Positions 43,753 through 61,559 of a stretch of DNA of 64,000 bases are shown piece after piece. This DNA comes from an uncultured Planctomycetales bacterium (lineage in GTDB: Bacteria; Omnitrophota; Gorgyraeia; Gygaellales; Profunditerraquicolaceae), in contig CAZRVK010000007.1 of NCBI GenBank assembly GCA_964603585.1, forward strand, positions 45,128-109,127, written 5' to 3'. Made by a program: the position numbers and the translations under genes. The first letter of the stretch is position 1, and each line of letters begins with the position of its first letter. The notes below the pieces were generated by a model. It saw only the letters and a program-made list of their open reading frames with translations. It was not told where the DNA came from and did not search any database.

Positions 43753-43893
43753 ATAAAAAAAGCCACTTCATAGATATTGTCATATCTTGAAATGGCTTTA
43801 CTTTACTTGTTATATAACTATCTGATTCTAATAGATGTTGCGGTAATTTAAATAGGTATTTATTGATATACCGCCACTTACCATAAAAAGTAT

Positions 43894-43920
43894 AACGGAG
43901 AGGCAGGGATTCGAACCCTG
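43894..43920. repeat. att-type direct repeat (within tRNA-Ser 3' end; island right boundary)
   Basis: Matches 28822-28848. Confidence 0.65.
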
Positions 43921-43980
43921 GGAGCCTTGCAGCTCACATGTTCTCCAGACATGCCCGTTCGACCGCTCCGGCACCTCTCC
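43896..43980 (-). tRNA. tRNA-Ser (anticodon GGA)
   Basis: 85 nt class II cloverleaf, acceptor GGAGAGG/CCTCTCC, anticodon loop CTGGAGA, long variable arm, T-loop TTCGAAT. Confidence 0.85.
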
Positions 43981-46572: not shown

Positions 46573-47274
46573 CTATTTATTAACGACAAAGAGCTGTGTT
46601 ATAACTGCGTCCAGTATCCCGCGAGCAGTCTGATATGCGCCATTGCAGAATTCGACAAAAGAAAATTCGGTAAACATGCAATTTAATATACCGGCTAACA
46701 AACCAAGATTTATTATATAGATCAGTGAAAAACCAAAAATGTAATTGGATTTGAAAAAATCATCCTTTTTACCGCGCATGGTTTTAGCGCTAAAGACAAG
46801 ATGCAGAGCAATACTCATGCCTAACAGAAAAATAAAATAATTAACTGCCTCTTTATCTAATGCCCAGGAGAAAAAACAATACACTAATGCCAGGATGATT
46901 GTATATACCGGCAGAAGGTATGGGGCTACCTTAACCAGGGGCTTAACAAATCTGAAAAACAGCTCCAGCAGTTTTTGGCCTTTAGTATAAAGAACTACCG
47001 GCTCCCAAATAAACAAATAGACCGAAACCATGACAATTACACCCTGCCAGAAATAATCCTGTGGTATTTTATCAACCCTGCCTAATTGGGTTAAAAAAGA
47101 AACCGTTGTTGAATAAACAATCGGCAAAAAACATATCCCGAGGATAAATTTAATAAAAACAAACAGTTTACGGCCAAAACCCGATGCCTTGGCCTTTATC
47201 CCCTCGCCTATCCCGGGCGGACCGGAAGGCTCATCTTCAAACCTCGCGAATTTAGGAAATTCTTTCTCTTCCAT
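46573..47274 (-). CDS. hypothetical polytopic membrane protein
   Basis: 233 aa, ~6 TM helices. Confidence 0.35.
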   Translation of the reverse strand: MEEKEFPKFARFEDEPSGPPGIGEGIKAKASGFGRKLFVFIKFILGICFLPIVYSTTVSFLTQLGRVDKIPQDYFWQGVIVMVSVYLFIWEPVVLYTKGQKLLELFFRFVKPLVKVAPYLLPVYTIILALVYCFFSWALDKEAVNYFIFLLGMSIALHLVFSAKTMRGKKDDFFKSNYIFGFSLIYIINLGLLAGILNCMFTEFSFVEFCNGAYQTARGILDAVITQLFVVNK

Positions 47275-48529
47275 CTAAATATGGCCTCAATACTTCAGGA
47301 ATGAGTATTGAGCCATCCTTTTGTTGGTAATTCTCTAATATTGCGATCACTGTACGGGCCAAAGCAAGCCCGGAACCATTTAAAGTATGCACAAATTCCA
47401 CCGTCTTGCGTCCGTCGAGAGCCGTTGACCTGAATTTGATATTTGCCCGGCGGGCCTGAAAACTCTCAAAATTACTGCAACTGGATACTTCTAACCATTT
47501 ATCTACACCGGCTGCATAAGCCTCTAAATCATAGCATTTCCCGGCAGAAAAACTTAAATCCTGTGTCGCCAGCATTAAGACCCGGTAAGGCAGGCCCAAC
47601 AGTTGTAAAACCTCCTCGGCATTATTGACTAATTTCTCCAGTTCATCATAAGAGGTTTCCGGACGGACAAATTTTACCATCTCGATCTTATCAAATTGAT
47701 GCACCCGCATTAAACCTTTAGTATCTTTACCATAAGAACCTGCCTCTCTGCGAAAACAGGCGGTATAAGCAGTATAATAAATAGGCAATTTATCGCCGTC
47801 TAAAACTTCATCACGAAAAATATTGGTCACCGGCACTTCGGCAGTAGGGATCAAAAACAGGTCATCATCTTTTAGCTTATACATATCCTCTTCCAGCTTC
47901 GGAAGCTGCCCGGTCCCGGTCATCGAAGCACGGTTCACTAAAAACGGAGGGAATATCTCGGTATATCCGTGTTTTTTTGTATGCAGATCAAGCATGAAAT
48001 TGATCAATGCCCTTTCCAACCGAGCACCCCAGCCTTTATAAAGCACCCAGTTCGAGCCGGTAATCTTCGTCGCCCGCGGTAGATCAATAATATCGAATTT
48101 CTGGCTGATCTCCATATGCGTCGCTGGCTTAAAATCGAATTTAGGGGGATCTCCCCATGTACGCACAACTTTATTACATGAAGGGTCTCCCCTGGGAATA
48201 GATGCATGCGGGATGTTCGGAATAGTCAAAATAAGCCTGTCTAACTCTTCTTCGAATGTCTTCAGTTCTTTTTCCAGAACACCGATATTCTGGGAGATCA
48301 CCTTCATCGACTCGATCTTGGGTTTGGCGTCGCGTTTTTCTTTTAATAAAACCGCGATCTCGTCATTAGCTTTATTTTTCTGCGACCTTAAATCTCCCAG
48401 TTCACTCAATACTTTTCTGCGGGAATCATCAAGCTTCAGGAAATTATCCAGGTCAATCTTTAAGTTGCGGTCAATTAACGCCTGTTTTACTAAATCCGGG
48501 TTTTCACGAATGAACTTTATATCTAACAT
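47252..48529 (-). CDS. serS: seryl-tRNA synthetase
   Basis: 425 aa, N-terminal coiled-coil arm, class II motifs 1-3 (FRRE, GSALARTV-type segments). Confidence 0.9.
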   Translation of the reverse strand: MLDIKFIRENPDLVKQALIDRNLKIDLDNFLKLDDSRRKVLSELGDLRSQKNKANDEIAVLLKEKRDAKPKIESMKVISQNIGVLEKELKTFEEELDRLILTIPNIPHASIPRGDPSCNKVVRTWGDPPKFDFKPATHMEISQKFDIIDLPRATKITGSNWVLYKGWGARLERALINFMLDLHTKKHGYTEIFPPFLVNRASMTGTGQLPKLEEDMYKLKDDDLFLIPTAEVPVTNIFRDEVLDGDKLPIYYTAYTACFRREAGSYGKDTKGLMRVHQFDKIEMVKFVRPETSYDELEKLVNNAEEVLQLLGLPYRVLMLATQDLSFSAGKCYDLEAYAAGVDKWLEVSSCSNFESFQARRANIKFRSTALDGRKTVEFVHTLNGSGLALARTVIAILENYQQKDGSILIPEVLRPYLDGRERIS

Positions 48530-48549
48530 TTTACCCTCTTTTAAAAAAC

Positions 48550-50007
48550 TTATCCTTTAATCACACCTACAGGACGCATTCGGCAAACGCGCTTTGAAAT
48601 GCCGGCATTATGCACTACCCCTGCCACATCATTAATATCTTTATACGCTTCAGGCGCTTCTTCTACGATTGTTCCCCGGCCAGAGGCCTTTACAATTATA
48701 CCTTTAGATTCCAAATTCTTCAATAAAACATTTAAATTTACTGACTTGGTGGCAGCGGTCCGTGATTTTAAGCGGCCAGCGCCATGACACGTTGAGTAAA
48801 ATGTCTCAACTGCCCTTTCTGTACCAACCAGCAAATAAGAATTCCTCCCCATATCACCGGGGATAATTACCGGCTGTCCGGTCTTTTGATATCTTTCAGG
48901 CAAAGACGGATGCCTGGGAGGAAAAGCGCGGGTCGCGCCCTTACGATGGACACACAAATCTTTTTCTTTGCCATTTATGGTGTATTTCTCGATTTTGGCA
49001 ATATTATGCGCCACATCATAGATCAATGACATTCCCAGCTTCTGCCACGGCATACCAAGGACTCGTTCAAAGCTCATCCGTGCTAAATGCATCAGGCACT
49101 GCCGGTTAGCCCAGGCATAATTCGCCGCACAGCGCATCGCCGCCAAATAAAGCTGTCCTTCGGAAGAATTCACCGGCGCACAAGCCAATTGGCGATCAGG
49201 AAGATTAATATTGTATTTTTGCAGGCAATGCACCATTGAACGCACATGATCATCACATACCTGATAACCAAAACCACGGGAACCGGAATGTATCATCACC
49301 ATCACCTGGCCAAGATCCAAATTGAAAGCATCGCATAAATCGCGGTCGTAAAGCTGATCAATAACCTGGATCTCAAGAAAATGATTCCCCGAACCAAGTG
49401 TTCCGGATTGTGCTTTGCCTCGCTCATAAGCCCGGTCAGAAACAGCATCTGGATCTGCTCCGGAAATCGCGCCATTTTCTTCAGTACACTCTAAATCGTC
49501 CTGAACTCCATAACCTTTTTGAACCGCCCATTTAGCCCCTTTGACCAGGATCTCTTTTTCTTCTTTAGCACTGACCCGAATATCTCCTTTTGAACCTACA
49601 CCAGCGGGAACATCGGAAAAAAGGGCATACACCAGGTTTTCCAGTTTATCTTTTATATCATCATACTGAAGATCAGTTCTTACTAACCTGATCCCGCAGT
49701 TTATATCGAAACCGACTCCTCCTGGAGAAACAACGCCCCCTTCTTCAATATCGGTTGCCGCCACCCCTCCGATCGGGAATCCATATCCCCAGTGTATATC
49801 CGGCATGGCAAGTGATGCATTCACGATCCCGGGCAAAAAAGCTACATTGGCAACTTGCTCTAAGGCCTTATCTTTATAAATATCTTTAAGCAATTTTTCA
49901 TCGGCATAAATTAATCCCGGCACACGCATACCCGGTTTATAGGATCTGGGGATACGCCACCGGTATTCATCTATTTTTTCTAACTTGACTTGTGGGTTAT
50001 CAGACAT
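48550..50007 (-). CDS. rtcB: RNA-splicing ligase RtcB
   Basis: 485 aa, GSGNHF, conserved His/Cys metal ligands, C-terminal ...HNAGISKRV... Confidence 0.9.
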   Translation of the reverse strand: MSDNPQVKLEKIDEYRWRIPRSYKPGMRVPGLIYADEKLLKDIYKDKALEQVANVAFLPGIVNASLAMPDIHWGYGFPIGGVAATDIEEGGVVSPGGVGFDINCGIRLVRTDLQYDDIKDKLENLVYALFSDVPAGVGSKGDIRVSAKEEKEILVKGAKWAVQKGYGVQDDLECTEENGAISGADPDAVSDRAYERGKAQSGTLGSGNHFLEIQVIDQLYDRDLCDAFNLDLGQVMVMIHSGSRGFGYQVCDDHVRSMVHCLQKYNINLPDRQLACAPVNSSEGQLYLAAMRCAANYAWANRQCLMHLARMSFERVLGMPWQKLGMSLIYDVAHNIAKIEKYTINGKEKDLCVHRKGATRAFPPRHPSLPERYQKTGQPVIIPGDMGRNSYLLVGTERAVETFYSTCHGAGRLKSRTAATKSVNLNVLLKNLESKGIIVKASGRGTIVEEAPEAYKDINDVAGVVHNAGISKRVCRMRPVGVIKG

Positions 50008-50455
50008 CTAAAATCACCTCCGCGATCCACCCGCCAGCGGTATGCTCTACTTTTAATTGATGATATGTTGCGGCTTTTATCTCAAAATTCAGCTTATAAT
50101 TTATAATATTACTGCCGATAGCAACTGCATCGATACCGGTTTCGTTAAGCTTATTGATCTTTAAATCATGAAAAATAACGCCCTTTGCCGAGGATAATGA
50201 CAATAATTCGTTAAGCCAGTTTATAAATAACTCTTCGAGATTGGCGGCTTCCTGGATAACAGGTAATTTTATATGCTGCGGGTCCTTGATAAATTGCCTG
50301 CGGGAGGCGATCTGAAAAACTGCAAGGCCTGCGTTCTTAAAGAGTTCTTCTAACTCTTGGCCTTTTATACGGAGGTAAATATCTGCGGTGTGTTCGAGGA
50401 TTTCGTAAGGTTGGTTTTTCACACAATGACCATATCTGAACTTCTGATCCGCCAA
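50000..50455 (-). CDS. archease (RtcB activator)
   Basis: EHTADIYLRIKG archease signature; overlaps rtcB start by 8 nt. Confidence 0.8.
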   Translation of the reverse strand: MADQKFRYGHCVKNQPYEILEHTADIYLRIKGQELEELFKNAGLAVFQIASRRQFIKDPQHIKLPVIQEAANLEELFINWLNELLSLSSAKGVIFHDLKINKLNETGIDAVAIGSNIINYKLNFEIKAATYHQLKVEHTAGGWIAEVILDV

Positions 50456-50467
50456 CTGTTAAATAAA

Positions 50468-50540
50468 TGGGCCATGTAGGAGTCGAACCTACGACCTTGA
50501 CATTAAGAGTGTCCTGCTCTGCCAATTGAGCTAATGGCCC
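50468..50540 (-). tRNA. tRNA-Lys (anticodon CUU)
   Basis: 73 nt cloverleaf, acceptor GGGCCAT/ATGGCCC, anticodon loop CTCTTAA, T-loop TTCGACT. Confidence 0.8.
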
Positions 50541-50794
50541 GAAAATCAATATCTTACAATCTTATCGTCGGGAAACCTGTAGAAATATGCTCTTACCTCA
50601 TCATACATAATCTTACTAAAAATCACTTAATTTAACAGACTACATTCACAGTTTATTCACATTTTGTATGCCCTTTTAATCGCCTATTCTAAGCCGTGAA
50701 TTTTAAGCCCAGGGCTTCTATACTGAACGATCTCTTGAGGCAAAAGGGATTATATCATTATTACGGTTTAAGGCAAGAGAAATTTGTTTTTGCA

Positions 50795-50822
50795 TTGACA
50801 GTAAGAACGTTTATGGTATAAT
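50795..50822 (+). promoter_or_regulatory. consensus sigma70 promoter TTGACA-16-TATAAT driving the tRNA-like gene
   Basis: Perfect -35 (50795-50800) and -10 (50817-50822) hexamers with 16 nt spacer; TSS ~10 nt before 50840. Confidence 0.6.
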
Positions 50823-50839
50823 TTTCTATCATGTAGCAC

Positions 50840-50913
50840 GCCCCTGTAGCGCAAATGAATAGCGCGCGCGTCTGCTAAACGTGAAGTTGCGGGTTTGAAT
50901 CCCGCCAGGGGCA
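50840..50913 (+). tRNA. atypical class-I tRNA-like gene, anticodon GCU (isotype unresolved)
   Basis: Perfect 7 bp acceptor GCCCCTG/CAGGGGC, 4 bp D-stem, 5 bp anticodon stem with loop CTGCTAA, 5 nt variable loop, T-arm GCGGG/CCCGC; D-loop lacks GG and T-loop is TTTGAAT (possible A19-U56 covariation). Confidence 0.5.
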
Positions 50914-50959
50914 CAATGTTACGGCAGCTAGCAGACAAGCTGCCTCTTTAATTTATATA

Positions 50960-51060
50960 ACAAAATACTTGACAAAATAATTGCATATTATATACTTTCA
51001 GTAGCAGACGTGCGCAATTATTTGCGTTACAGGAAGGGCGTCAGAAATGACGTCCTTTTT
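50960..51060 (+). ncRNA. candidate ~65 nt cis-antisense sRNA: TTGACA-16-TATACT promoter to GNRA-tetraloop intrinsic terminator
   Basis: -35 50960-50965, -10 50982-50987; terminator GGGCGTCA-GAAA-TGACGTCC + TTTTT at 51036-51060; antisense to the 3' end of the 51041-51202 gene. Confidence 0.4.
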
Positions 51061-51202
51061 CCTTTTTAGGGACAATTTCTTTCATTAACTGCCTCAATTC
51101 CCTGGCCGTTAGCTTATCTGCTATCCTCAGCCCACAATCATACCGCAGGAATTGATGCAGCCGAATTATGGCTTTTGTTTCTTTAATTAGCTTTTTGAGC
51201 AT
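51041..51202 (-). CDS. small conserved protein (53 aa; paralog of island gene 37917-38087)
   Basis: MLKKLIKETKAIIRLHQFLRYDCGLRIADKLTARELRQLMKEIVPKKEKGRHF; below ORF-track cutoff. Confidence 0.45.
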   Translation of the reverse strand: MLKKLIKETKAIIRLHQFLRYDCGLRIADKLTARELRQLMKEIVPKKEKGRHF

Positions 51203-51298
51203 GTCTATCACCCCCTTTTAAGGTAATAGACGCATAAGGTGAGGAAATCTAACAGGATTTCTATTGATTTATCATATACAATATGATTAAATATAAAG

Positions 51299-51793
51299 AT
51301 GAAAACTAAGGACTTAGTAGTTTTTTATATCGAATTATCCATCCTAACCTTACTCAGCATCATTACCATAATTGTCAACCAGAATACAATTTTCCCTTGG
51401 ATGTTAAAGAATCCAATACTTGTTTCTCTATCTGGTTTTTTAGTCATCTTAAGTTATATTATAATACAGGAGTATACCTATACCAAAACACACCGTTATC
51501 TTCTTAAAATAATTAATGATGGATTTAAAGAGACTTTTGAGAATATGAATGAGATTATCATCTATATAGAAGAGATTTCTAAATCAAAAGAACCTTTAAA
51601 TAAAACCGTCTCTAAAATAAATGCGGAAATTAATTCGATTAAAGGAGATATGACCAAAAGCGATTTTGAAACAAAATTAAGATTAAAAACCATGGAGGAA
51701 GGAATTTCATCCCATAGATCTTTAATGACGCTGTTTGTTTCAATAGTCGGGATACTCCTTATATTTATAGGTTATATGGTAAGTCTCAAATAA
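51299..51793 (+). CDS. hypothetical membrane protein
   Basis: 164 aa, 2 N-terminal and 1 C-terminal TM helices, only plus-strand gene in the phage block. Confidence 0.35.
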   Translation: MKTKDLVVFYIELSILTLLSIITIIVNQNTIFPWMLKNPILVSLSGFLVILSYIIIQEYTYTKTHRYLLKIINDGFKETFENMNEIIIYIEEISKSKEPLNKTVSKINAEINSIKGDMTKSDFETKLRLKTMEEGISSHRSLMTLFVSIVGILLIFIGYMVSLK

Positions 51794-52238
51794 TCATTGG
51801 CACCGTAGCCAATAAAACAGCCCCCCGGCCTCCCTCATGCAGATTATCGTTCCACCGGCCAAGAAAATACCATGCCCCCATAAACACAGTGCAGATCACA
51901 ACCCGGATCCCGAAACCTATCCAATGCCCGGACGCCCAAGCGTAGAATATCGCGGATAATGAGCAAAAGAACCCATGCATTGCGTAATGCCACCAGGAGT
52001 AATCTTTCGGTTTAGGGAATATGTATCTATATGTAGTCAATGCGCCCCCCATGGCAAAGAAACACGGTAAAATTGATATCCACTGCCAGAACCCGGATAT
52101 TGCATGCAGATGCCACAGATAAGCCACAAACAAGCAGGGAAGCCCCCAATCGCGCACCGGACTGACTTTCCACCCTCCAATGCGATAAAGGATCCCTGCG
52201 ATCAAGCTAAACCCAAGCCAATAATTAAAATTCGACAC
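51786..52238 (-). CDS. Trp-rich polytopic membrane protein
   Basis: 150 aa, 4-5 TM helices. Confidence 0.3.
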   Translation of the reverse strand: MSNFNYWLGFSLIAGILYRIGGWKVSPVRDWGLPCLFVAYLWHLHAISGFWQWISILPCFFAMGGALTTYRYIFPKPKDYSWWHYAMHGFFCSLSAIFYAWASGHWIGFGIRVVICTVFMGAWYFLGRWNDNLHEGGRGAVLLATVPMII

Positions 52239-52530
52239 GGACGCCTCCCCTGATGTATGTACCCATATCCGCGTTATTTCGCTGCTCCACTCCTACCTCA
52301 ATAAATGGAATAAAGAACCGACTGGTTTTATTGATCTGCGTAACCTTAACTTCGGATCCTTTTTGAGCGATAATTGTCTGCGTAGGTTTAGGTCGAAGAG
52401 TAAACCACACGCAATACCCAATCCCAAAGAATAAAAGCATCCACGGCACAAAGGCTAATGCCTTTATGCCGGTTTTAGGTTTAACGGCTCCCTGGAAGAA
52501 ATGCTTACACGTAATTGGCTCTTCGCTCAT
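52225..52530 (-). CDS. hypothetical phage protein with N-terminal TM
   Basis: 101 aa. Confidence 0.25.
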   Translation of the reverse strand: MSEEPITCKHFFQGAVKPKTGIKALAFVPWMLLFFGIGYCVWFTLRPKPTQTIIAQKGSEVKVTQINKTSRFFIPFIEVGVEQRNNADMGTYIRGGVRVEF

Positions 52531-52714
52531 TTCTAAGATAAATTCCTCATGTTATAGATCAATGTCCGCCAAAAAGATTTCTTATGATCCTTACATTGAG
52601 TCGCGACATGACTCTTAGGAAAATACGCACTTTTTGCTTTGCATTCTTCCGGAAGATACCCTAATCCGAACATAACGGATCTTCCTTCTATATAGTTCTT
52701 GCATGTCTCGCAGT

Positions 52715-53014
52715 TCATTTCTCACTCGCATTTTTCAACGCATTAACCGCCATTTCGATTACCAGGAATATTAAGCTGTCCCGAACAGTAATACCTTTAG
52801 TAATCGCATATCCTTTAATCTCCTGGAATGCCTGGTTGCGTTTTTCTTCATTGCTTAGATCAGTAGCAGCCAATTTCTCCACAGAAGCCAAAGCAATGTC
52901 CTTAATCGCGGCAATCGCTATCTGCGTGGCTGAATTGAATACTGATAAAAGAAACGGTTTTACTGCCTTTACTACCTTTAAAAATAAGTCTCTTATCCAA
53001 TTAAACATTGCCAT
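52715..53014 (-). CDS. hypothetical phage protein
   Basis: 99 aa. Confidence 0.25.
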   Translation of the reverse strand: MAMFNWIRDLFLKVVKAVKPFLLSVFNSATQIAIAAIKDIALASVEKLAATDLSNEEKRNQAFQEIKGYAITKGITVRDSLIFLVIEMAVNALKNASEK

Positions 53015-53222
53015 CCCCCTTTTTTTGTTCAGGCATTTTCTGCCCGAAATAAAACCCCATTAGAAATGATACGATCTCTTTTAGTATTTCCGGAACCGGA
53101 AACTGGTTTAAGATTAAATAACAAAGCGTAAAATAGAATAACGCCGCGAATATAGTTCTTGGCTTTAGCCATTCCTTGATCAGTGTCTTTTCTAATTCTC
53201 TAATCTCTTCGATTATATTCAT
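53001..53222 (-). CDS. small single-TM protein (holin-like candidate)
   Basis: Start ATG overlaps stop of upstream gene (ATGA); one TM helix, charged C-terminus. Confidence 0.25.
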   Translation of the reverse strand: MNIIEEIRELEKTLIKEWLKPRTIFAALFYFTLCYLILNQFPVPEILKEIVSFLMGFYFGQKMPEQKKGDGNV

Positions 53223-53344
53223 TTCTTCTTCGGCTGTACTGTTCCGCACTTTGTACACACTACCCCGTGTTTACTTCTCTTCATCATGGTATATTTTTCA
53301 CAGGTTATACAGTTACCACCAAGATATGTCTTTTTCTTATTCAT
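53219..53344 (-). CDS. 41-aa zinc-ribbon protein (not in ORF track)
   Basis: MNKKKTYLGGNCITCEKYTMMKRSKHGVVCTKCGTVQPKKK; CxxC...CxxC; start overlaps upstream stop (TAATG). Confidence 0.3.
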   Translation of the reverse strand: MNKKKTYLGGNCITCEKYTMMKRSKHGVVCTKCGTVQPKKK

Positions 53345-53535
53345 TAATGTCCCCCTGCTTTTACCATTTCATCAAATCTATCGGGTAATAATTTTTTATC
53401 ATACCCTCTTCGCCCCGTGATTATCTTCCCGCATTTAGAACATCTTAAAGTTCCATTATCCCGATACCGCCACTCTCCTGTCTTGCAGTGAGGACAAACT
53501 CTCGGATCGTTTACTCTCCGACCGGTATCAACCAT
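53344..53535 (-). CDS. 63-aa zinc-ribbon protein
   Basis: CPHC...CSKC four-Cys ribbon. Confidence 0.35.
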   Translation of the reverse strand: MVDTGRRVNDPRVCPHCKTGEWRYRDNGTLRCSKCGKIITGRRGYDKKLLPDRFDEMVKAGGH

Positions 53536-53539
53536 ATAA

Positions 53540-53764
53540 TTATCTTTCTATAAAGAGCTTGCTCACCAACGCTGTAATAAACCCAGCCACAGCGCCAAAG
53601 ACTGTTGCCTTACCCTCGATATTTGAAACCTTATTTTCAACAGAATTAAGTCTTCTAAACGTTTCTCCACAAGGGAGCTTATCTAACCGATCTTCTAACC
53701 CTTCCATTTTGGCTTTCATGTACCCTTCAAACGCTGTCGTGGGTTTAAACTCGTCTTTCGGCAT
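53540..53764 (-). CDS. small protein with C-terminal TM helix
   Basis: 74 aa. Confidence 0.25.
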   Translation of the reverse strand: MPKDEFKPTTAFEGYMKAKMEGLEDRLDKLPCGETFRRLNSVENKVSNIEGKATVFGAVAGFITALVSKLFIER

Positions 53765-53777
53765 ATTAACCTCTTTC

Positions 53778-54041
53778 TTATTCCTCCGTAATCACTACCC
53801 CAAATTGGTTAAATATATCTGCAAGGCAATTCTTCGCCCCTAAAAAATCATCGGAGAAAACCGTATATACTCTTCGGACGATATATTTAATCTTTTCCTT
53901 AAAATGATCATTTAATATGACTACGTCCTGCGATTCGTTATTCCAGTAATGCAATTCTCCGTTAGCCCTTACTTCTATACCTCCTATCTTCGTGTCAATC
54001 TTTAGATTTGCGCTTATCGTACCGTCTAAATTCACGGTCAT
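53778..54041 (-). CDS. hypothetical phage protein
   Basis: 87 aa. Confidence 0.2.
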   Translation of the reverse strand: MTVNLDGTISANLKIDTKIGGIEVRANGELHYWNNESQDVVILNDHFKEKIKYIVRRVYTVFSDDFLGAKNCLADIFNQFGVVITEE

Positions 54042-54131
54042 ATTAACTTTTGATAACCACGATTGAGATATACCGTCTATGAGTGTATTTCTATCGGCTT
54101 CGGATATTTCAGCAAGTTCTTCGTTTACCGC

Positions 54132-54593
54132 CTAATTAGCTCCCGCAAGTATAACGCAATGCCAATCTCCTGATATAGTTCCCCAAGAAGAAATATCTAT
54201 TGATAAATTGTCAATGTCTATAAGCGTAATATCATCAGGTATAATTTGTTTATCGTTATTATCATATACTTGCACAATGCAGTATTTCTTTCCTAAGGAA
54301 TGTTCAATATCGAGGATACCGCTCGATAAATCGTCATTACCAAATAGCTGTTCATATACTGTTGTAGTATATGGCATTTTCTCATCATCTAATTCATTAA
54401 TCGCTGACTGAACATCAGTCGCAGAGATGTTACCGGCTGGTTCAACTACAATATCCGAAGCTTTATCATAAACAGCATTCGATTCAGCAAATAACAAACT
54501 TGCTAACGATAGAAATATTATTGCTCCGAAACTAATTGTTTTCTTCATCTTAACTCGCGATCCCAATAATTTCTCCCAGAGAACAAAGATCAC
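54132..54593 (-). CDS. secreted hypothetical protein
   Basis: Signal peptide, acidic beta-rich body. Confidence 0.3.
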   Translation of the reverse strand: MIFVLWEKLLGSRVKMKKTISFGAIIFLSLASLLFAESNAVYDKASDIVVEPAGNISATDVQSAINELDDEKMPYTTTVYEQLFGNDDLSSGILDIEHSLGKKYCIVQVYDNNDKQIIPDDITLIDIDNLSIDISSWGTISGDWHCVILAGAN

Positions 54594-55293
54594 CTGTATC
54601 CCCTGCTTTCAATTGTATGGTTACGTTATATGTCGTTCCATTGGTTAAACTCGAAACATCCACTGAAAAACTATACCAACCGAAAGTCGATGATGGTATA
54701 CTGACAGAATTATTTTGCCCTCCAATATCTACCTTTACACTCCCGGCTCCATGAGCTGCATAATTACCCACCGTAGCATTAACCCACACCGTAACGCTGG
54801 AAATTCCTGCAATCTTCTTAAACTTTGTGGTTAAAACTGTCCTATAAGTATTTTGATAAACTGACCATGCACCTAAAGTGATTTTAGTATTATCAACTAA
54901 AGTATCACTGATCATTATCCCGTTTGTATCTGCGACGTGCGATTCTGCCCCAAGCCCAAAAGAAAACAATACATTCGATAAGTTATTACCTAATGCTTGC
55001 CATGCTGAACCAGTATAAATATATTTGGTACTTTCATCCGTACGCCAAAAAGGTTGCCCTGTAATTGGATTCGCAGGGAAAGACGTCCCATGCCTGATCG
55101 CGCCATCATTGTCAAGAGATACATATAATCGCGTTTTTAGATCTGTACAGCTTCCAGCCGGATCAACTCCTAATTCGGCAGCTAATGCAACAACGTCATC
55201 CTGTAAAGCATTGACATGACCTGCATCAACTAAATCGACTTTATTGGTCTTGTTTGTGTACGAAGGCAATGTTCCTGGATAAACCGAAGCCAT
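54550..55293 (-). CDS. putative tail fibre / receptor-binding protein
   Basis: N-terminal MASVYPGTLPSY...VNALQDDVVALAAELG fibre-shaft-like start, Gly/Ser/Thr-rich beta-rich C-terminus. Confidence 0.4.
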   Translation of the reverse strand: MASVYPGTLPSYTNKTNKVDLVDAGHVNALQDDVVALAAELGVDPAGSCTDLKTRLYVSLDNDGAIRHGTSFPANPITGQPFWRTDESTKYIYTGSAWQALGNNLSNVLFSFGLGAESHVADTNGIMISDTLVDNTKITLGAWSVYQNTYRTVLTTKFKKIAGISSVTVWVNATVGNYAAHGAGSVKVDIGGQNNSVSIPSSTFGWYSFSVDVSSLTNGTTYNVTIQLKAGDTGDLCSLGEIIGIAS

Positions 55294-55304
55294 ATTCCTC
55301 CCCC

Positions 55305-55592
55305 TTACTGATTAATTAATTTTTTATCTATATATGCGATTTGTTCGCGTAGATTCTGCGCCTGAATCTCAAATGGCAATAAAGCTTTTACTATTTGGCG
55401 GTATTTAAGAATAAAATCTAACCAACTTAATCCATTCAAATAATGTTTAGTTTCTAAAATCTTCCTTTCATGCTGATTAAGTTCCAACTGCAATAGCTCT
55501 CGAGTCGATCTTAAACTTCTTCCTGATTTCTTCTCGAGTTCTATCTTTTCTTCGATATCCGTTTCTTTTAATGGTATAAACCAATTTGTCAT
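55305..55592 (-). CDS. hypothetical coiled-coil protein
   Basis: 95 aa. Confidence 0.2.
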   Translation of the reverse strand: MTNWFIPLKETDIEEKIELEKKSGRSLRSTRELLQLELNQHERKILETKHYLNGLSWLDFILKYRQIVKALLPFEIQAQNLREQIAYIDKKLINQ

Positions 55593-56710
55593 AAAGATCC
55601 CGCCCTTTGCTGTTCTAACTGATATTCTAACTGCGCAATATTTTCTGCAATCGATGGCCTTAAGTAACCGAGGTCTATTCTGGTCTTTAAAATGTTGTTA
55701 TTGTCTAAAATGTAATTAACTTTATTTAATTGGCGCTCAATTAAACCTGAATATAAGAATGTCCCGTATTTCTTTTCACTATATCTTACTGGTTTTCCTA
55801 CAATTATCGTTAACGGGACAGGAATTGTCTCTTCTATCCTTTGATCTAAATTAATAAACGTGCATTTGGCACTTCTTACTACATCATTAAACTCGGCAAA
55901 GATAGAATTTGCGTATTGCTGAGCAACTGCGTCCGTAGTAATCGCTGAATTCTGGATGACTTTTGTTCTTAGATTATATTTGGCTTGGCTTAATGTATCG
56001 TTAAAAGTCTTTGTATAAGGAGTTCCGCTTACATCTCCACCCTGAATAATAACTCGATTCACAATATCTTTGAAACTCTGGTCCTCATTAAAATCAGTTA
56101 TATCTTTACCTATCAGATATCTGAAACCTACAGTCGAACTTCTTCCTTTAAAGGAGAATTTCCTATCTTTATCGACTCCCCATTCCCGGGATCCAACTAT
56201 ATTCGCGCAAGTCTCTAATGCACTCTTTGCATCGGTATTAAATTTAAGACTGTCGGGAGTAAAAGAAGTAGCAACAATATCGGAAGCACTGTAAGTAATA
56301 TCAGTATTTGGGACAACAAAAGTATCCAGTATATCTTTTACGATAACTGAAATCTCTTGGCTCGTATAAGTCTTACTGACATATATCCTGGATAATTGCG
56401 TAGAATATCCATGTCCATCTATACGGATAATCTCTTCATCTCCGCTTATTGCAGGGTATTTATCTTCGACTAATCCTTGATACCATAAGTCGTAATTCTT
56501 AGTTGACGGATTCCTATAGTTAATCCTTATATTAAAATCACCACTTATTGACTTTTCATTACAGTAATCCCGCGCTAAATCAAAGCTGAATTCTCCACAA
56601 CCTCCTAACCTCGAATATGCCCATCGAAGATTCATAAATTCAGCATCTAAAATCTCTAAAATATTAAACTCTTTATCTCTTAACTCCACCCTAAATATCA
56701 TGATAACCAC
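55589..56710 (-). CDS. phage tail/baseplate structural protein
   Basis: Position 2 genes downstream of tape measure; beta-rich 373 aa. Confidence 0.35.
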   Translation of the reverse strand: MVIMIFRVELRDKEFNILEILDAEFMNLRWAYSRLGGCGEFSFDLARDYCNEKSISGDFNIRINYRNPSTKNYDLWYQGLVEDKYPAISGDEEIIRIDGHGYSTQLSRIYVSKTYTSQEISVIVKDILDTFVVPNTDITYSASDIVATSFTPDSLKFNTDAKSALETCANIVGSREWGVDKDRKFSFKGRSSTVGFRYLIGKDITDFNEDQSFKDIVNRVIIQGGDVSGTPYTKTFNDTLSQAKYNLRTKVIQNSAITTDAVAQQYANSIFAEFNDVVRSAKCTFINLDQRIEETIPVPLTIIVGKPVRYSEKKYGTFLYSGLIERQLNKVNYILDNNNILKTRIDLGYLRPSIAENIAQLEYQLEQQRAGSL

Positions 56711-57900
56711 CTATTAAACCAGTCAACTTTAACAGTACAATTTGACCCGGTAAACTTAAGGTAATTAGTCCCTGGCACAAGTTTTAAGAAATCACCAACG
56801 TGATAAGCAATTGAATCAACGTTGTTATTATTAACAGTGAAATTATCACAATCTACCTCTAATGTATTACCGGCTAAAACAGTCCCGGTAAATGCGAAGC
56901 TTTCTCCCGTTGTCAAATTCTCTAATTTGCAGCTGGTAATATCAACGGTTTGGTCTGCGATGAAATAAACCTTTGGCTTTGACCTGAAGTTTCCACTGTA
57001 TGTAATATTAAATTCTACTGGGGAAGATGTAACAACCTGCTTCTTTCTTAAGCTGCTTATAAACTTAGCTGACGGATCAGGAGCTAAGAATCGGATATTA
57101 TATTGCATGATTTTTAACCGAGAAAGATATCCCCAGCTCGGACTACCATCAAGAAATACCTCTATTACCCTATCGTCATATAAATATAAATCTCTCTTTT
57201 CATCTTCTTTCCAGGATAACAGAGATTTTAAAAGATTATCTAAGTTAGTCCGCGCGATCGTAAGAGTATCTCCAACAACATAACCTTTTATATTTATCTG
57301 GCGGCTACCCAGATGTATTTCCGGCACGTATACACCCTCTCTTCTTGCAATATTCAATTCTTGATTCTTTACACTGAACTCTGGTTTCCATTCATCTACA
57401 TGCGAAAAAGCATCCTCTAATTCAGTAAAGATATTCTCCCCTTCAACCAAAATCGCTCCGTCAAAATACGCCGTAACACCGTTCGGAATATTTATCGTGA
57501 TTTGTACCTTTGTCGCAGAAACATCGATCTTTCTGGTAACTGATAGAAATTCTTGACTACCTCCGCCAGTATGCGCGGATGAGTTACTTGTACCAACTCC
57601 ATCATCAATGGTTATCGTTACCCCCGCCCCGGAAGTATAAACCCAACAACCGATCGACATTGTTCGACCGGCGTAATCTGTACCTAAAGGAATTTGACGA
57701 TAAATATTTTGCCCCGTATTCGTCCCGATCAACTTAAGTGCATAACTGCCAAATTTAACAATCGTGCTTTCTTTCGCGATCGTAGGAGTACCCGTCTTTG
57801 TCCATCCAGTAGGCTCAGCACTATCTCCGCTTTCCCAATCCTCGAAATTACCCCAATCACCTAACAAATTCTTCGGACTGATTCTTAAAGCGCTATCCAT
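56698..57900 (-). CDS. phage distal tail protein candidate
   Basis: Immediately downstream of tape measure, beta-rich 400 aa. Confidence 0.35.
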   Translation of the reverse strand: MDSALRISPKNLLGDWGNFEDWESGDSAEPTGWTKTGTPTIAKESTIVKFGSYALKLIGTNTGQNIYRQIPLGTDYAGRTMSIGCWVYTSGAGVTITIDDGVGTSNSSAHTGGGSQEFLSVTRKIDVSATKVQITINIPNGVTAYFDGAILVEGENIFTELEDAFSHVDEWKPEFSVKNQELNIARREGVYVPEIHLGSRQINIKGYVVGDTLTIARTNLDNLLKSLLSWKEDEKRDLYLYDDRVIEVFLDGSPSWGYLSRLKIMQYNIRFLAPDPSAKFISSLRKKQVVTSSPVEFNITYSGNFRSKPKVYFIADQTVDITSCKLENLTTGESFAFTGTVLAGNTLEVDCDNFTVNNNNVDSIAYHVGDFLKLVPGTNYLKFTGSNCTVKVDWFNRWLS

Positions 57901-60068
57901 TATGTACCCCTCGCATAATTTAATTGCCTTTTAATCTCGACTCCCAGCTCTTCAGCTAAATCCTTAATGTCCATATTGCTGCCGATACTCGCCTGGACAT
58001 TTATATTAATATCTCCAAAGAAATTCTCTCCTACACCGTTCCTACCATTTAAAGGGATCACCGCTTCAGGACCTTTTTCCCCAATTAAAGCAAGTGTCGG
58101 GTCTTCTACAATCCCTCCATTCCCTAAAGTAAGTAATCCTCCTCCGGAAGAAGCCGCTTGCAATCCTTTCATGCCCATAAATAAAGCTGTCCCTGTGCCT
58201 AAAGCGCCAGCAAGTCCTGCTGTTCCGGCGGCATCCGCGGCGCCTAATGTCGCTATTGAAGCAAATACGGCCGCCGGCAACCATGCCGCGGCAACCGTAT
58301 TCGCCTGGGATGTTACTAATGCCGTGATCATATTACCTAAAGCCATTGCTACTAATGCCTGGACACCCCATTCAACAATGAAATTAACGATTGTAGTAAT
58401 CAACATTTTCCCGAAATCCTGAAACGCTTCACTCGCTGTTTTTGTACCTAAAATGATGCTTGATATAGCAGTAGAAAACCCGCTTGAGAATGCCGTAATC
58501 CCTGTGTTTATAAAATCGAATATCCCCTGCCAGATCGTTTTATGCATACTCTGCATTGTCTGCAAAAGACGTGTAGCAGAATCCAAAGTATTCTGCTGAT
58601 TTATTAAATCCTGATTCGATAACTCTGCTTTGACTTTATAATAATTCCTGGCTGCCGTTTCTCCTTCCTGGTAAATCTCAAGCTCGATCTGTTTTGCTTC
58701 GATCCCGTCATTATGAATCTCGAGCTGCTGATCGTAATATTCCTGCAGAGTTATTTGCCCGGAGAGATACTCTTCGTTTAACTCTTTAAGTGCTTGTTTC
58801 TGCTGGTCTATTTTATTGACAGCCTCATCTAATACAGTCAATGTGTCATTAGATGCAACTGCGGAACTTGCAGCCGCATTAGATTCCGTACCGGCTTCTG
58901 TACTGCCTGACTTAGGGAAACTACTATCACTCCATCCGAATTCCATCACTGCGGTTTTAGGTTTACCAAGATTCTTAAAGAAATCTTGAACACGTAACCC
59001 GAATTCTTGAAGTTTTTTACTGTTACTTTCTAACCATTCACCTAACTTCCAACCGGCAAATGCTGCTGCAACGGCTAAAGCGATCGGGTATAAGATTGCC
59101 AAGGATCCTTTTAATGCAGTTATTTGAGCTGTAATCAAAGGCAAAAGCACTTTTAAATTTAATAAAGCCTGGACTAATTGATTAAAAGCCAAGATAAGAG
59201 GCCCTAAGACCAACGAAATCGCGCCGATTGCCAAAGTAGTGCCAGAAATAAACTGGCTTAACTTCGGATGTTCTTCTGACCATTTACGAACAGATACAAC
59301 AACGTTCGTAACCATCGCCACAAGTTTCTCTAATGTCGGTAACAGTAATAAAGAAATATTAAGCCATAACCCAGCGGCCGCTGATTTTAGCGAAGCCATG
59401 CCATCGCTAAAATTGTCAATTGCCTTAGCATTATCTGCGGTTAAAACTACCCCTAACCTATGCGCTTCATCGGAAAGCTTCTGTATGCCATCAGATCCAA
59501 GGTTAAGGATAGGGATCATTGATATCCCCTGCTTTCCAAAGATTTCCATGGCCAAAGCGGTTTTCGCGCTTTCATCTGTTAGGTTTTTGAATTTATCCGC
59601 TATCTTTAGGAAAACCTGTTCGGATTCCAGTAATTTTCCGGTAACTTCATCTTTAAGGCTTATCCCGAGGACCCGGAAGCTTTGATTCATTTTATCGTTG
59701 CCATTAGTAGCTTCATAAATATTGCGGCTTAAATACTTCATTCCCTGGGAAACAGCGGCAAAAGAAGATTCTGTCTGATCTGCGACATACTTAAGTTCGC
59801 TTAATGTCTCAACAGCAATCCCTGTCTGCTGATTTACCTTAAAGATTTCATCCGAAAAATCCACTGAAGACTTTATCATTAAGGCAAATGTTCCAGTAAT
59901 AGCCGCACCAACAGCCGTAAGAGTCAACCCGATTTTATTCGTGTATTCGTTGATCTTTCCGGTGCTGTCTTTTATTAACTTTTCAGCATCTTTCATACCC
60001 TTATTGAGGGTACTCATGTCTGTAGTAATGCTGACTATTAAATCTCCCAAGCTTCCTTCTAATCCCAT
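57900..60068 (-). CDS. phage tail tape-measure protein
   Basis: 722 aa, long alpha-helical/coiled-coil N-half, central TM cluster, Gly/Ala-rich C-terminal segment; preceded by G/GT chaperone. Confidence 0.75.
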   Translation of the reverse strand: MGLEGSLGDLIVSITTDMSTLNKGMKDAEKLIKDSTGKINEYTNKIGLTLTAVGAAITGTFALMIKSSVDFSDEIFKVNQQTGIAVETLSELKYVADQTESSFAAVSQGMKYLSRNIYEATNGNDKMNQSFRVLGISLKDEVTGKLLESEQVFLKIADKFKNLTDESAKTALAMEIFGKQGISMIPILNLGSDGIQKLSDEAHRLGVVLTADNAKAIDNFSDGMASLKSAAAGLWLNISLLLLPTLEKLVAMVTNVVVSVRKWSEEHPKLSQFISGTTLAIGAISLVLGPLILAFNQLVQALLNLKVLLPLITAQITALKGSLAILYPIALAVAAAFAGWKLGEWLESNSKKLQEFGLRVQDFFKNLGKPKTAVMEFGWSDSSFPKSGSTEAGTESNAAASSAVASNDTLTVLDEAVNKIDQQKQALKELNEEYLSGQITLQEYYDQQLEIHNDGIEAKQIELEIYQEGETAARNYYKVKAELSNQDLINQQNTLDSATRLLQTMQSMHKTIWQGIFDFINTGITAFSSGFSTAISSIILGTKTASEAFQDFGKMLITTIVNFIVEWGVQALVAMALGNMITALVTSQANTVAAAWLPAAVFASIATLGAADAAGTAGLAGALGTGTALFMGMKGLQAASSGGGLLTLGNGGIVEDPTLALIGEKGPEAVIPLNGRNGVGENFFGDININVQASIGSNMDIKDLAEELGVEIKRQLNYARGT

Positions 60069-60070
60069 AT

Positions 60071-60777
60071 TTAATTGTCCTCGATTGGCAAACCTTTATC
60101 TTTTAACTGATCTAAAGTTTCGTTCAAATCTTTCTCATCGGGTAACATCTTTTCCAGGAAATCACTAAATTTAGAAGATTTCATTGACCCAAAGGCTGTG
60201 GCCACAGCATACAAAGTGCTTACCGCATTTAACTGCACTTCCTTAAGTTTCTGCTTCTGGATTGTGTCATAATAAAGTTTGATCTGCTCAACGGTTAAAT
60301 TGTTCGCAATATAATCTTTATCCCAACCACATTCCCGGGCTAAAAAGGCTATTGCTTCAACTAAGAAGTCTTCTTTATTCCTTTTAATAGACTTTTTACC
60401 TGGGCGAACAAAAAAGGGAGATCATTAACCTCCGAAATAGCTGTTAAAATCTCGAATTCGTCTTTAATACTGACATTCTCTAAAAGCCATTCTTTTGGCT
60501 TTCCAAGAGCAATTTCGTATATATCGACTAATCTTTCCCCGGCAATATCGATTATGGATTGAAAAAGATTTAATCCTACTTCCATATTTTTCAAATTCAT
60601 ATCCGGATTAACTTTTCCATACTGCAATATCGCTTCAGATATGATCTTCAGAACTTTTGTACGATTAACCAATACGAACGGCTTAATCGCAAACTCCTCG
60701 TTTCCTACTGTTATCTTCTTCCCTTCTGGGTACATGATCTGTAATGGATCGGACATCAAAATGCCTCCTCTTATCAA
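60071..60777 (-). CDS. tail assembly chaperone G with -1 programmed frameshift extension (G-T)
   Basis: 138 aa ORF ends at 60361; slippery heptamer U_UUU_UUG at 60409-60415 in the zero frame (ccT TTT TTG); -1 frame stays open for 105 codons to TAA at 60071-60073, 2 nt before the TMP ATG. Confidence 0.65.
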
Positions 60778-61332
60778 TTAAGCTTTCGTTCTTACGATCT
60801 TAAACAATTTCTTCTTATCCGCTAATGCTGCGTTGCTAAAATCACTCGTACCGTCCATTGCCTGGAATTCAAACGGGAATTCGTGCATATCTTCGGCATT
60901 AAACGAAACAGCGATTTTCCCTGACCCCATGACTTTAAACATCTGCAAGTCAATAGTTGCCCCATCCGGCTGACGATGCACAAACCTCAACGCCCTATTA
61001 CTCATATTCATATCACCGCCGAATTCCATTGTTTCAGCTGCCCCGGATATCGAAGTCATCCCCGCCCCTAAAGCATAGGAAAGATTATCGAGATCCCATT
61101 CAATCCCAGATATCTTAAAACTGACTTTTTCCTCGGTAATATATTGCGCTACTTTTACCTTTGGACTGCCGAGTTTGACTTCCAGAGGAGTTCTTTCAAT
61201 AGTCAACTCGGAATTACCCTTAGTGGCACCAACATCGATTAACGGAGTAGTTCCGGGAACGCCTAAATAAAGAATCCCTGGACCAAAAGAGAACCTTACT
61301 GGATCATAACTTGGTAAGTTATACATTTTCAT
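60778..61332 (-). CDS. major tail protein candidate
   Basis: 184 aa beta-rich protein immediately upstream of chaperone gene. Confidence 0.35.
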   Translation of the reverse strand: MKMYNLPSYDPVRFSFGPGILYLGVPGTTPLIDVGATKGNSELTIERTPLEVKLGSPKVKVAQYITEEKVSFKISGIEWDLDNLSYALGAGMTSISGAAETMEFGGDMNMSNRALRFVHRQPDGATIDLQMFKVMGSGKIAVSFNAEDMHEFPFEFQAMDGTSDFSNAALADKKKLFKIVRTKA

Positions 61333-61559
61333 TCACCCCCTTTCTCTGTTATTTTTTCATCAACAAGAGTATTCCTCTTGCCACATCTTGGGCATGTTTC
61401 AACTACCTTGCCCCCTTCAACTTCAATATATAAATCCTTACGCTTTATTCTGACGGTATTCTTCCCCTCTACAAAACCAAGGATAAACTTACATGCAGAA
61501 CAAAGCCATTTCTCGATCATATCGCCACCGCCATATACCTTGCCGGGAAATGATAACAA
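61329..61559 (-). CDS. small zinc-ribbon protein
   Basis: CSAC...CPRC. Confidence 0.3.
   Translation of the reverse strand: MLSFPGKVYGGGDMIEKWLCSACKFILGFVEGKNTVRIKRKDLYIEVEGGKVVETCPRCGKRNTLVDEKITEKGGE

Follow-up and report, generated by a model that had tools for sequence, protein, structure and literature searches.

In toxin-antitoxin systems of type I, such as hok/sok and fst/RNAII, which are found on prophages and plasmids and serve in addiction or abortive infection, the stable transcript of the toxin is neutralised by an antisense RNA that is short-lived and has an accessible seed, and in systems of type VIII, to which SdsR/RyeA belongs, both the toxin and the antitoxin are RNAs. The present work concerns a prophage-borne transfer RNA (tRNA) gene with the anticodon GCU, here called the odd tRNA (50840-50913, + strand), and a predicted small RNA (sRNA) gene that follows it in a stretch of contig CAZRVK010000007.1, the whole 64,000 nucleotides of which were analysed and are referred to as the window. 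A first-pass annotation of the window had flagged the tRNA gene together with its promoter; judging from the sequences compared here, the finding is larger than that interval and consists of a conserved pair, a tRNA and an anti-tRNA RNA, which is carried on mobile elements.

The target of a type I antisense RNA is a messenger RNA (mRNA) for a small membrane peptide, whereas here it would be a non-coding tRNA, and no open reading frame (ORF) overlaps the target of the complementarity, nor is a toxin ORF present. With regard to type VIII, the pair consists of two adjacent predicted RNA genes with promoters and terminators and with specific, covarying complementarity over 14 + 16 nt, one of which might neutralise the other. 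In CreTA, which is assigned to this type, the toxin CreT has the form of a mini-mRNA, which sequesters a tRNA of the host and acts via the pool of Arg tRNA(UCU), and a CRISPR-guided complex silences it at the level of transcription (PMC8501985). Both components are RNAs in CreTA, as they would be in the pair proposed here, with the translation apparatus as the (here proposed) target, but the proposed toxin is itself a miscoding tRNA, its antidote would pair directly with the anticodon arm and there are no Cas genes. These two types are the nearest precedents at the level of the system, and neither of them has a tRNA as its toxin or an sRNA that is aimed at a tRNA.

Among tRNAs, the closest parallel is that of tRNA-ProX/ProRSx in Streptomyces and Kitasatospora, in which a proline tRNA body bears Ala, Asn or Thr anticodons and is served by a dedicated synthetase (PMC10404621; reviewed in PMC11415595). 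The odd tRNA likewise joins a body of one isotype to an anticodon that belongs to a different one, and mistranslation, which is predicted here, was shown for ProX, which is toxic when expressed. On the other hand, tRNA-ProX has a synthetase paralogue, A33 and A34, whereas the odd tRNA would need no new enzyme, given that arginyl-tRNA synthetase (ArgRS) reads C35, U36 and A20, and, unlike ProX, the odd tRNA is borne by a phage or other mobile element and is accompanied by a predicted antisense RNA dedicated to it.

Ordinary phage tRNA-Arg(UCU) is connected with codon compensation or escape from anticodon nucleases (PMC10264068, PMC11555353). The odd tRNA has the same scaffold (A19-U56, A20), the same kind of position as accessory cargo and likewise a promoter of its own, but its G34 leaves AGA/AGG unreadable and matches serine codons instead, and the ordinary copies are without a downstream self-antisense sequence. 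T-box leaders are also RNAs that pair with a tRNA anticodon upstream of a terminator; they pair, however, with three anticodon bases, dock on the elbow and sense the 3' end, whereas pairing over 14 + 16 nt would here undo the fold of the tRNA. Neither a T-box motif nor an Rfam match is present, and the genes of the tRNA and its partner are neighbours. In the searchable literature, the coverage of which is incomplete and does not guarantee priority, no Arg-bodied GCU tRNA, no phage tRNA-Arg with A19-U56 and no anti-tRNA sRNA was found described, and the term A19-U56 itself does not occur.

Structure and identity of the odd tRNA

The odd tRNA is a genuine class-I tRNA with the anticodon GCU. ARAGORN calls a 75-nt tRNA at 50840-50914(+) with the anticodon GCT, which it labels tRNA-Ser, and the Rfam covariance model RF00005, a check proposed in the first-pass annotation, accepts 50840-50913 from end to end with a score of 64.1 bits, the gathering threshold being 29. 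The minimum free energy (MFE) fold is the clean cloverleaf that had been described (-33 kcal/mol, z = -3.0), in which 21 of 21 stem pairs are formed, with a variable loop of 5 nt (AAGUU), the anticodon loop CU-GCU-AA and the discriminator A73, and CCA is not encoded in the gene. The T-loop, UUUGAAU, places U at position 56, so that the A19-U56 covariation noted earlier stands, as a trait that is common among viral tRNA-Arg; in the D-loop, AAAUGAAUA, G19 alone is replaced by A, and the earlier description of a D-loop without the conserved GG is right as to G19 and wrong as to G18, which is kept. The region is identical, G34 included, in the Logan assembly of run SRR15237810 (L139, one of the loci that are designated by L numbers).

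The gene is preceded by a promoter, TTGACA-16-TATAAT with a TG-extended -10 (50795-50822, + strand), which agrees with the consensus in 12 of 12 positions, as had been recognised earlier, and which is the sole perfect sigma-70 consensus in the window, where 0.06 would be expected by chance. Transcription is predicted to start at about 50829, which would give a leader of about 10 nt. Behind the gene, terminator prediction places an intrinsic terminator hairpin of the tRNA transcript (50923-50944, + strand), the loop of which stays open in the predicted fold and holds UAGCAGAC (50929-50936), a sequence complementary to tRNA positions 30-37 in the anticodon loop.

In bacteria, the identity set for Arg consists of A20, C35, U/G36 and A/G73, and position 34 is not part of it (PMC9976931, Table 1). 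The odd tRNA carries A20, C35, U36 and A73, i.e., all four determinants, its D-loop aligns with that of the host tRNA-Arg(ACG), AACUGGAUA, and its body is similar to that of the same host tRNA. A scan of IMG/VR for the D-loop/T-loop scaffold TGAATA...TTTGAAT at class-I spacing, with the anticodon left free, yielded at least 120 loci. Among the matches listed, the anticodons were UCU (at least 83), ACG (at least 18), UCG (at least 5), CCG (at least 1) and GCG (at least 1), and 12 of the 13 non-Arg matches were not tRNAs; 108 of the 109 genuine tRNAs on the A19/U56 scaffold in this list have Arg anticodons, a specificity for Arg of about 99%. A D-loop ending in G[G/A]AUA, which holds A20, was present in 18 of 35 Arg tRNAs, 3 of 643 others and none of 49 Ser tRNAs in a sample of 678 unselected phage tRNAs. 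Furthermore, the tRNA body of a viral GCU locus on the canonical scaffold (L155) matches GenBank phage genes, and the annotated features under the matches listed are all tRNA-Arg.

The features of a serine tRNA are lacking, both the long variable arm and G73. Each of the four tRNA-Ser genes of the host has ...CCG (G73) at its end, their lengths and those of genuine phage tRNA-Ser(GCU) genes lie within 81-92 nt, and the 30-odd genuine phage tRNA-Ser(GCU) in the fetched loci are class II without exception; one such class-II tRNA-Ser(GCU) is also present, as had been reported, at 4556-4646(-) among the seven tRNAs of the window. The host seryl-tRNA synthetase (SerRS) is of the standard type, with an N-terminal arm-binding domain. 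Of the features of a tRNA-Arg, A20 is present, as are C35, U36 and A73, and what is missing is an anticodon of the NCG/YCU kind; GCU matches AGC/AGU (AGY), which makes the odd tRNA an Arg-type body that is no functional Arg decoder.

The odd tRNA is almost certainly Arg-bodied. It should be charged with Arg, because the Arg determinants are kept and there is no long variable arm for SerRS, and it should then decode AGC/AGU. The first-pass annotation had argued in the same direction, on the grounds of a 5-nt variable loop, for a tRNA that is not of the seryl type, with which A73 agrees, and had named arginyl-tRNA synthetase as a possible charging enzyme, an expectation that the full set of determinants and the specificity of the scaffold bear out as a prediction; the decoy role that it offered as an alternative found no support.

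The meaning of the codons concerned was assessed on the phage tape-measure protein, which was aligned with 24 homologs in order to count the homolog residues for each codon class. The 24 columns of AGY codons held S at 36%, T at 16% and R at 1%, the 32 columns of TCN codons (Ser control) S at 41% and R at 1%, the five columns of CGN codons (Arg control) R at 45%, and the five columns of AGR codons (Arg control) R at 29%; one AGC codon faces Ser in 23 of the 23 homologs aligned at that position. Recoding of AGY to Arg in the phage was ruled out, given that these AGY columns are Ser/Thr, and so was avoidance of AGY, since its usage, a comparison that had been suggested earlier, is higher in the prophage (29 per 1000 codons) than in the host (20 per 1000). 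As AGY means Ser in the phage genes, a GCU tRNA that inserts Arg would harm phage and host proteins.

As regards the scaffold itself, the elbow pair A19-U56 (..UGAAUA / UUUGAAU) replaces the near-universal G19-C56 in more than 100 viral tRNA-Arg genes (loci L003-L122), the anticodons of which are UCU, ACG, UCG, CCG, GCG and CCU. The viral contig L033 bears the anticodon UUU on the A19/U56 Arg scaffold, the only genuine non-Arg case among the matches listed, and this tRNA may be a tRNA-Arg remoulded into a tRNA-Lys. A 75-nt 'tRNA-Ser(gct)' in the tRNA array of a jumbo phage (L132 c[9088,9162]) has A33 for U33 and no Arg D-loop motif.

The antisense small RNA

On the same strand, about 90 nt downstream of the odd tRNA, starts the gene of a predicted anti-tRNA sRNA of about 67 nt (51001-51067, + strand), which is indicated by promoter, terminator, fold and complementarity. 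A second promoter, TTGACA-16-TATACT (50969-50996, + strand; 11 of 12 consensus positions), has a -10 that ends 5 nt before the antisense sequence. The first antisense segment, UAGCAGACGUGCGC (51002-51015, + strand), pairs with tRNA positions 24-37 over 14 bp with one G.U, and its targets are the end of the D-stem, position 26, the 5' anticodon stem and the loop including G34-C35-U36. The second, UUAUUUGCGUUACAGG (51018-51033, + strand), pairs with the linear tRNA nt 4-19 over 16 bp with two G.U, and its targets are the acceptor 5' strand and the D arm. The antisense transcript would end in a terminator hairpin of 13 bp (51031-51060, + strand), followed by a U-tract to about 51067. The first-pass annotation, the interval of which ended at 50913, was right about the tRNA and missed both the sRNA gene and the anti-anticodon loop of the tRNA terminator.

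In the predicted fold, the sRNA consists of an unpaired 5' seed of 11 nt, a small hairpin and the 13-bp terminator (z = -5.0). Its predicted duplex with the odd tRNA has -55.1 kcal/mol, against -33.7 +/- 4.6 kcal/mol for shuffled sRNA, and with non-cognate GCU tRNAs the predicted values are -27 to -34 kcal/mol. Co-folding with the phage tRNA brings a gain of -17.1 kcal/mol, and with each of six host tRNAs, tRNA-Ser(GCU) included, the gain is 0. All three wobbles of the duplex are of the kind tRNA-G.sRNA-U, as pairing at the level of RNA allows.

Three copies of the octamer TAGCAGAC are present in the window, every one of them inside the tRNA/sRNA module, i.e., at the anticodon (in minus-strand reading), in the tRNA-terminator loop at 50929-50936 and at the 5' end of the sRNA. 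Directly after the second promoter of the window stands GTAGCAGACGTGCG, and directly after a promoter-like site in an Acidobacteriota metagenome-assembled genome (MAG; L125) stands GTAGCAGACACGCG, each of which is the reverse complement of the anticodon loop and 5' anticodon stem of its own tRNA. A search of Rfam at E <= 1 over 50541-51800 gave no match besides the odd tRNA.

Recurrence, controls and covariation

Exhaustive scans for the A19/U56 scaffold with the anticodon GCU found intact tRNAs in a viral contig (L002), a Woeseiaceae MAG (L123) and the Acidobacteriota MAG (L125), and one with a damaged acceptor stem in a metagenome contig (L129). On the canonical G19/C56 Arg scaffold, GCU tRNAs are intact in the viral contigs L149 and L155 and imperfect in the viral contig L156, and two truncated GCU families also occur on this scaffold in viral contigs. 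There are six structurally intact Arg-bodied GCU tRNAs with A20 and A/G73, in unrelated backgrounds. The MAGs L123 and L125, which belong to different phyla, have common flanks, with 55% identity in a DDE transposase-like protein and 64% in a protein of 85-87 aa, and their tRNAs are 82% identical with GCU in both; the anticodon was therefore kept through deep divergence in this lineage, given that the flanks diverged while GCU was conserved. As for the question of a single clade, the four A19/U56 members are mutual nearest neighbours, yet they are also the most GC-rich.

An antisense partner is present at four of the six intact GCU loci, namely the window, the two viral contigs L149 and L155 and the Acidobacteriota MAG L125. 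The partner pairs with the anticodon arm over 13 bp in L125 (6191-6203), 15 bp in L149 (1925-1940) and 12 bp in L155 (1954-1965). A second segment in L149 (1942-1953) pairs with the D arm over 11 bp, and in L125 one was seen by inspection, with CTATTCA opposite TGAATAG.

As a control, the longest pairing of the 14-nt anticodon-arm segment, with at most one G.U, was determined in 823 distinct contexts, drawn from the whole set of fetched loci and each made up of a tRNA and 300 nt downstream. The median was 6, the top four values (14, 13, 13 and 12) are those of the four GCU tRNAs, and the next is 11. Complementarity of at least 12 nt is thus found in four of six intact GCU tRNAs and in none of about 815 others, and the D-arm match of the window, with 16 nt, is the longest in the 823 contexts. 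What the search patterns prescribed was the anticodon loop together with the motifs of the D- and T-loops; as the downstream region was in none of them, the antisense result is not an artefact of selection. The values that follow those of the four GCU tRNAs belong to a tRNA-Met(CAU) of L132 with 11 nt and a UUA suppressor tRNA (L113 1259-1330) with 10 nt, AT-rich, and these self-complementarities are probably chance matches.

For the four modules, tRNA positions 24-37 were joined to the transcript start in a covariation alignment. Both sides changed in 7 of the 14 pairs, and double changes number 13. Pairing at the six variable positions (26-31) holds in 24 of 24 cells across the four modules. 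The covariation score of 0.714, against 0.239 +/- 0.089 for shuffles, was reached by none of 500 shuffles, and a shift of the register lowers the pairing to 14-48%. A promoter-like -10 ends 4-6 nt before UAGCAG in three of the four modules, a strong intrinsic terminator follows the antisense region in three of the four, and the layout of the window, in which a promoter is followed by the antisense sequence, is also that of L125 and L149. The antisense relationship is very probably real and under selection.

The modules lie beside a lysis cassette (window, L149), a methylase-endonuclease fusion (L149) and a transposase-like gene (L125). As for a conserved protein partner, the small ORFs that converge on the sRNA at the modules are not convincingly related.

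The truncated GCU tRNA-like elements (the L148 family, L153, L156 and L129) have no antisense partner and are probably relics. In the viral contigs L148, L150, L151, L152 and L154 (e.g., L150 262-330), a common tRNA-like element stands between a promoter and a terminator, with an Arg-type D arm, a GCU anticodon and acceptor strands unable to pair, which may be a relic or a different tRNA-like RNA. In L123, a class-II Leu-type tRNA with the ochre-suppressor-like anticodon UUA (2397-2483) lies 9 nt past the GCU tRNA and is the second anticodon-shifted tRNA of the same mobile module, and no antisense partner was found there for either of the two.

Proposed function and alternative explanations

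The odd tRNA would have been derived from the phage-type tRNA-Arg(UCU) family by a change of U34 to G, and it would be strongly transcribed, arginylated and used to put Arg for Ser at AGC/AGU throughout the proteome. The seed of the sRNA would dock on the exposed anticodon loop and invade the anticodon stem and the D arm, and such pairing would cover the anticodon, disrupt the fold of the tRNA and block decoding, which would neutralise the tRNA; the duplex of sRNA and tRNA would probably be a substrate of RNase III. The tRNA would be the stable toxin and the sRNA the short-lived antidote, and when transcription of the module stops, either through loss of the element or through shut-off by a superinfecting phage, free tRNA would be left to cause lethal or abortive mistranslation, because tRNAs have long lifetimes, unlike sRNAs whose 5' ends are free. 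In E. coli and yeast, tRNAs that mistranslate are toxic (PMC10404621; PMC6125640), and the positions of the modules on mobile elements fit a reading as addiction or abortive infection. Arginylation, AGY decoding, the expression and lability of the sRNA, its partner's toxicity and the biological role are what we infer from this arrangement.

Whether the locus is a two-RNA, toxin/antitoxin-like module, in which a mistranslating tRNA would be the stable component and an anti-tRNA sRNA the labile one, is, on the sequence evidence, an evenly balanced question. That it represents an RNA-only toxin-antitoxin or abortive-infection system on phages and other mobile DNA of several phyla, with a mistranslating tRNA as toxin and an sRNA as antitoxin, is a more tentative proposal, to which we would give somewhat less than an even chance. 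Of the functions considered for the pair, a mistranslation-based toxin-antitoxin or abortive-infection device is the most plausible.

Several points weigh against this proposal. Both transcripts are predicted, with promoters and terminators that are matches to consensus, and Arg charging with G34 and decoding of AGY rest on rules from E. coli and T. thermophilus, while the host probably belongs to Omnitrophota. A home-made isotype classifier, a hidden Markov model (HMM) with the anticodon masked, ranks Arg first by a narrow gap (34.7 bits against 31.4 for Lys), at a cross-validated accuracy of 68%, and this weak classifier was not relied on, nor was typing by global identity, which discriminates weakly. 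Only four modules have an antisense partner, none being present at L002 and L123, though these tRNAs are intact; all examples come from metagenomic assemblies, and the complementarity could in principle have arisen by independent inverted duplications and not by maintained pairing. In addition, a constitutive perfect promoter on the toxin requires an antidote in excess, and there is no known defence or toxin-antitoxin protein nearby.

The alternative that survives best, though still unlikely, is tunable mistranslation, in which the tRNA inserts Arg at AGY and the sRNA acts as a rheostat, with regulated diversification of the proteome or stress tolerance as the outcome. It draws on the same molecular evidence as the toxin-antitoxin reading, and sequence alone cannot separate the two; deliberate mistranslation can be of benefit (PMC10404621; PMC11415595), as has been proposed for the Streptomyces tRNA-ProX. 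A replacement of Ser by Arg is harsh, however, as it changes the charge, the cargo positions (the lysis cassette in two phages, the transposase-like gene in L125) are typical of addiction or defence genes, and no sensor or regulator is evident.

In a second, quite improbable alternative, the tRNA regulates the RNA downstream of it, either by a pairing that controls termination at 51031-51060 and hence the expression of the 164-aa ORF, or as a sponge of an sRNA with other targets. The second antisense segment does share 3 nt (51031-51033) with the 5' arm of the terminator, and in the window an ORF on the same strand lies downstream (51299-51793), as does a holin ORF (2224-2625) on the same strand in L149, about 185 nt past the antisense region and with no terminator called. 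Yet the terminator faces a convergent ORF in L125 and a convergent 899-aa ORF in L155, with no same-strand gene at either, the terminator stays folded in the predicted co-fold with the tRNA, Rfam shows no T-box or other leader, and the constancy of GCU on an Arg body would be left unexplained.

A little less probable again is an accident, i.e., that the odd tRNA is a U34-to-G mutant of a phage tRNA-Arg(UCU) moron and persists as a neutral or slightly harmful relic, with a complementarity due to the coincidence of a local duplication. The partner is nevertheless specific to GCU, at four of six loci against none of about 815 for 12 nt or more, and covaries with the tRNA; GCU was kept between L123 and L125 while the proteins encoded in the flanks diverged by about 45%, and the odd tRNA has a perfect cloverleaf and the best promoter of the window. 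The rarity of GCU on the A19/U56 scaffold would suit an accident, with one viral GCU locus against at least 83 UCU and 5 CCU among the matches listed, as would the related phages that lack the tRNA and the visible decay of some GCU copies (L129, L156, the L148 family).

The two segments and their targets also form an imperfect inverted repeat of 14 + 16 bp, about 130 bp apart, which could serve a site-specific recombinase as an invertible switch or att-like site, and recombinases do lie near some loci (the integrase family of the prophage, the transposase-like genes in L123 and L125). This explanation at the level of DNA is very improbable: no recombinase is conserved over the four modules, all mismatches are G.U in the sense of tRNA and + strand transcript, which is irrelevant to DNA repeats, a promoter is placed right where the repeat starts in three of four loci and a terminator lies behind the repeat in three of four, and the att core of the prophage lies in a tRNA-Lys instead. 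Finally, an unconventional class-I serine tRNA, charged with Ser as a translational helper for AGY, can be given almost no credence in spite of the anticodon and the elevated AGY usage in the prophage, given the missing variable arm, A73 where the four host tRNA-Ser genes have G, the arm-binding domain of the host SerRS, the uniform class II of phage tRNA-Ser(GCU) and the D-loop motif found in none of 49 phage tRNA-Ser.

Genomic context

The attachment site of the prophage is a tRNA-Lys(CUU) gene (50468-50540, - strand; ARAGORN, Rfam and the attP of L146), a hybrid with a phage-derived 5' half (to about 50501), a host-derived 3' half and a G27.A43 mismatch. The locus L146 is a whole phage genome and a syntenic relative, in which the late genes run into the integrase, and its intergenic attP region contains nt 1-41 of tRNA-Lys(CUU) and the sequence conserved at 50541-50790 of the window. 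The phage family is accordingly placed, by this comparison, as one that integrates into the anticodon loop of tRNA-Lys(CUU), because the attP of L146 carries these 41 nt, and the DNA to the right of about 50501 is prophage. In the phage attP arm conserved with L146 (50541-50790, no strand assigned) there are also TGTGAATA repeats and, from 50776 to 50749 on the - strand, a promoter-like site. That the phage supplies the 5' half of the tRNA-Lys together with about 250 bp upstream is unusual.

The odd tRNA is accessory cargo between the attP arm and the lysis genes, and the arm shared with L146 agrees with the earlier description of the tRNA as prophage-associated. A role of the odd tRNA as the att site itself, which had also been considered, was ruled out, since the crossover lies in the neighbouring tRNA-Lys(CTT), a part of which is carried by the attP of L146. 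The comparison with related phages that had been suggested showed that L143, L146 and L147, syntenic relatives found via the tape-measure protein, have no tRNA at the equivalent place. No close relatives of the odd tRNA or of the prophage were found in IMG/VR and the GenBank phages, and the window contains no repeat of the 3' part of the odd tRNA.

The rest of the cargo consists of a 56-aa ORF (51041-51211, - strand), which converges on the sRNA terminator, and of the gene for a predicted membrane protein of 164 aa (51299-51793, + strand), and these ORFs have no matches in Pfam, NCBIfam or PADLOC and no PHROG function. No aminoacyl-tRNA synthetase gene is present in the phage cargo, the SerRS gene being a host gene, with standard domains, across the attachment site. 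The late region of the prophage (51786-64000, - strand) was annotated with lysis genes including a holin, tail, Dit, tape-measure and tail-chaperone genes; it is siphovirus-like and runs past the window to the capsid genes, as seen in L145. The closest homologs of the tape-measure protein include a Candidatus Omnitrophica MAG. A methyltransferase and several glycosyltransferase genes stand between the capsid and tail genes (62662-63972 in the window; 3113-7407 in L145), and these genes of the structural module are kept in L143, L146 and L147.

To the left of the attachment tRNA are host genes for SerRS (47252-48529), the RNA ligase RtcB and its activator archease, which adjoin it as a group (47252-50455) near three tRNA-Ser genes. 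A link between the RtcB/archease tRNA-repair operon and the neighbouring tRNA module is possible and may be a coincidence. Farther to the left, the 3' end of tRNA-Ser(GGA) is repeated directly over at least 17 nt (28815-28851, 43886-43922), bracketing about 15 kb of AGA-rich DNA with a low GC content (0.33-0.38), which is probably a second integrated element. A thiamine pyrophosphate (TPP) riboswitch (RF00059, 60 bits) is located at 24659-24772(-).

Implications

If the module works as inferred here, the short 'tRNA-Ser(GCU)' calls in phages would not be serine tRNAs, and annotators would have to be alerted to this. The odd tRNA would, if the reading is true, provide the first case of a tRNA that acts as a toxin, and its partner would be the first sRNA in bacteria with the silencing of a tRNA as its dedicated task. 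Such a pair would also offer synthetic biology a natural, compact, programmable combination of tRNA and anti-tRNA for the control of mistranslation and the reassignment of codons. For the biology of the elements themselves, selection would have exploited a 'loophole' in arginine identity, in which position 34 is free to change without loss of charging, and, as a principle new to translation biology and to the warfare of mobile elements, the deliberate miscoding of a tRNA would serve these elements as a weapon that is restrained by RNA-RNA pairing at the anticodon.

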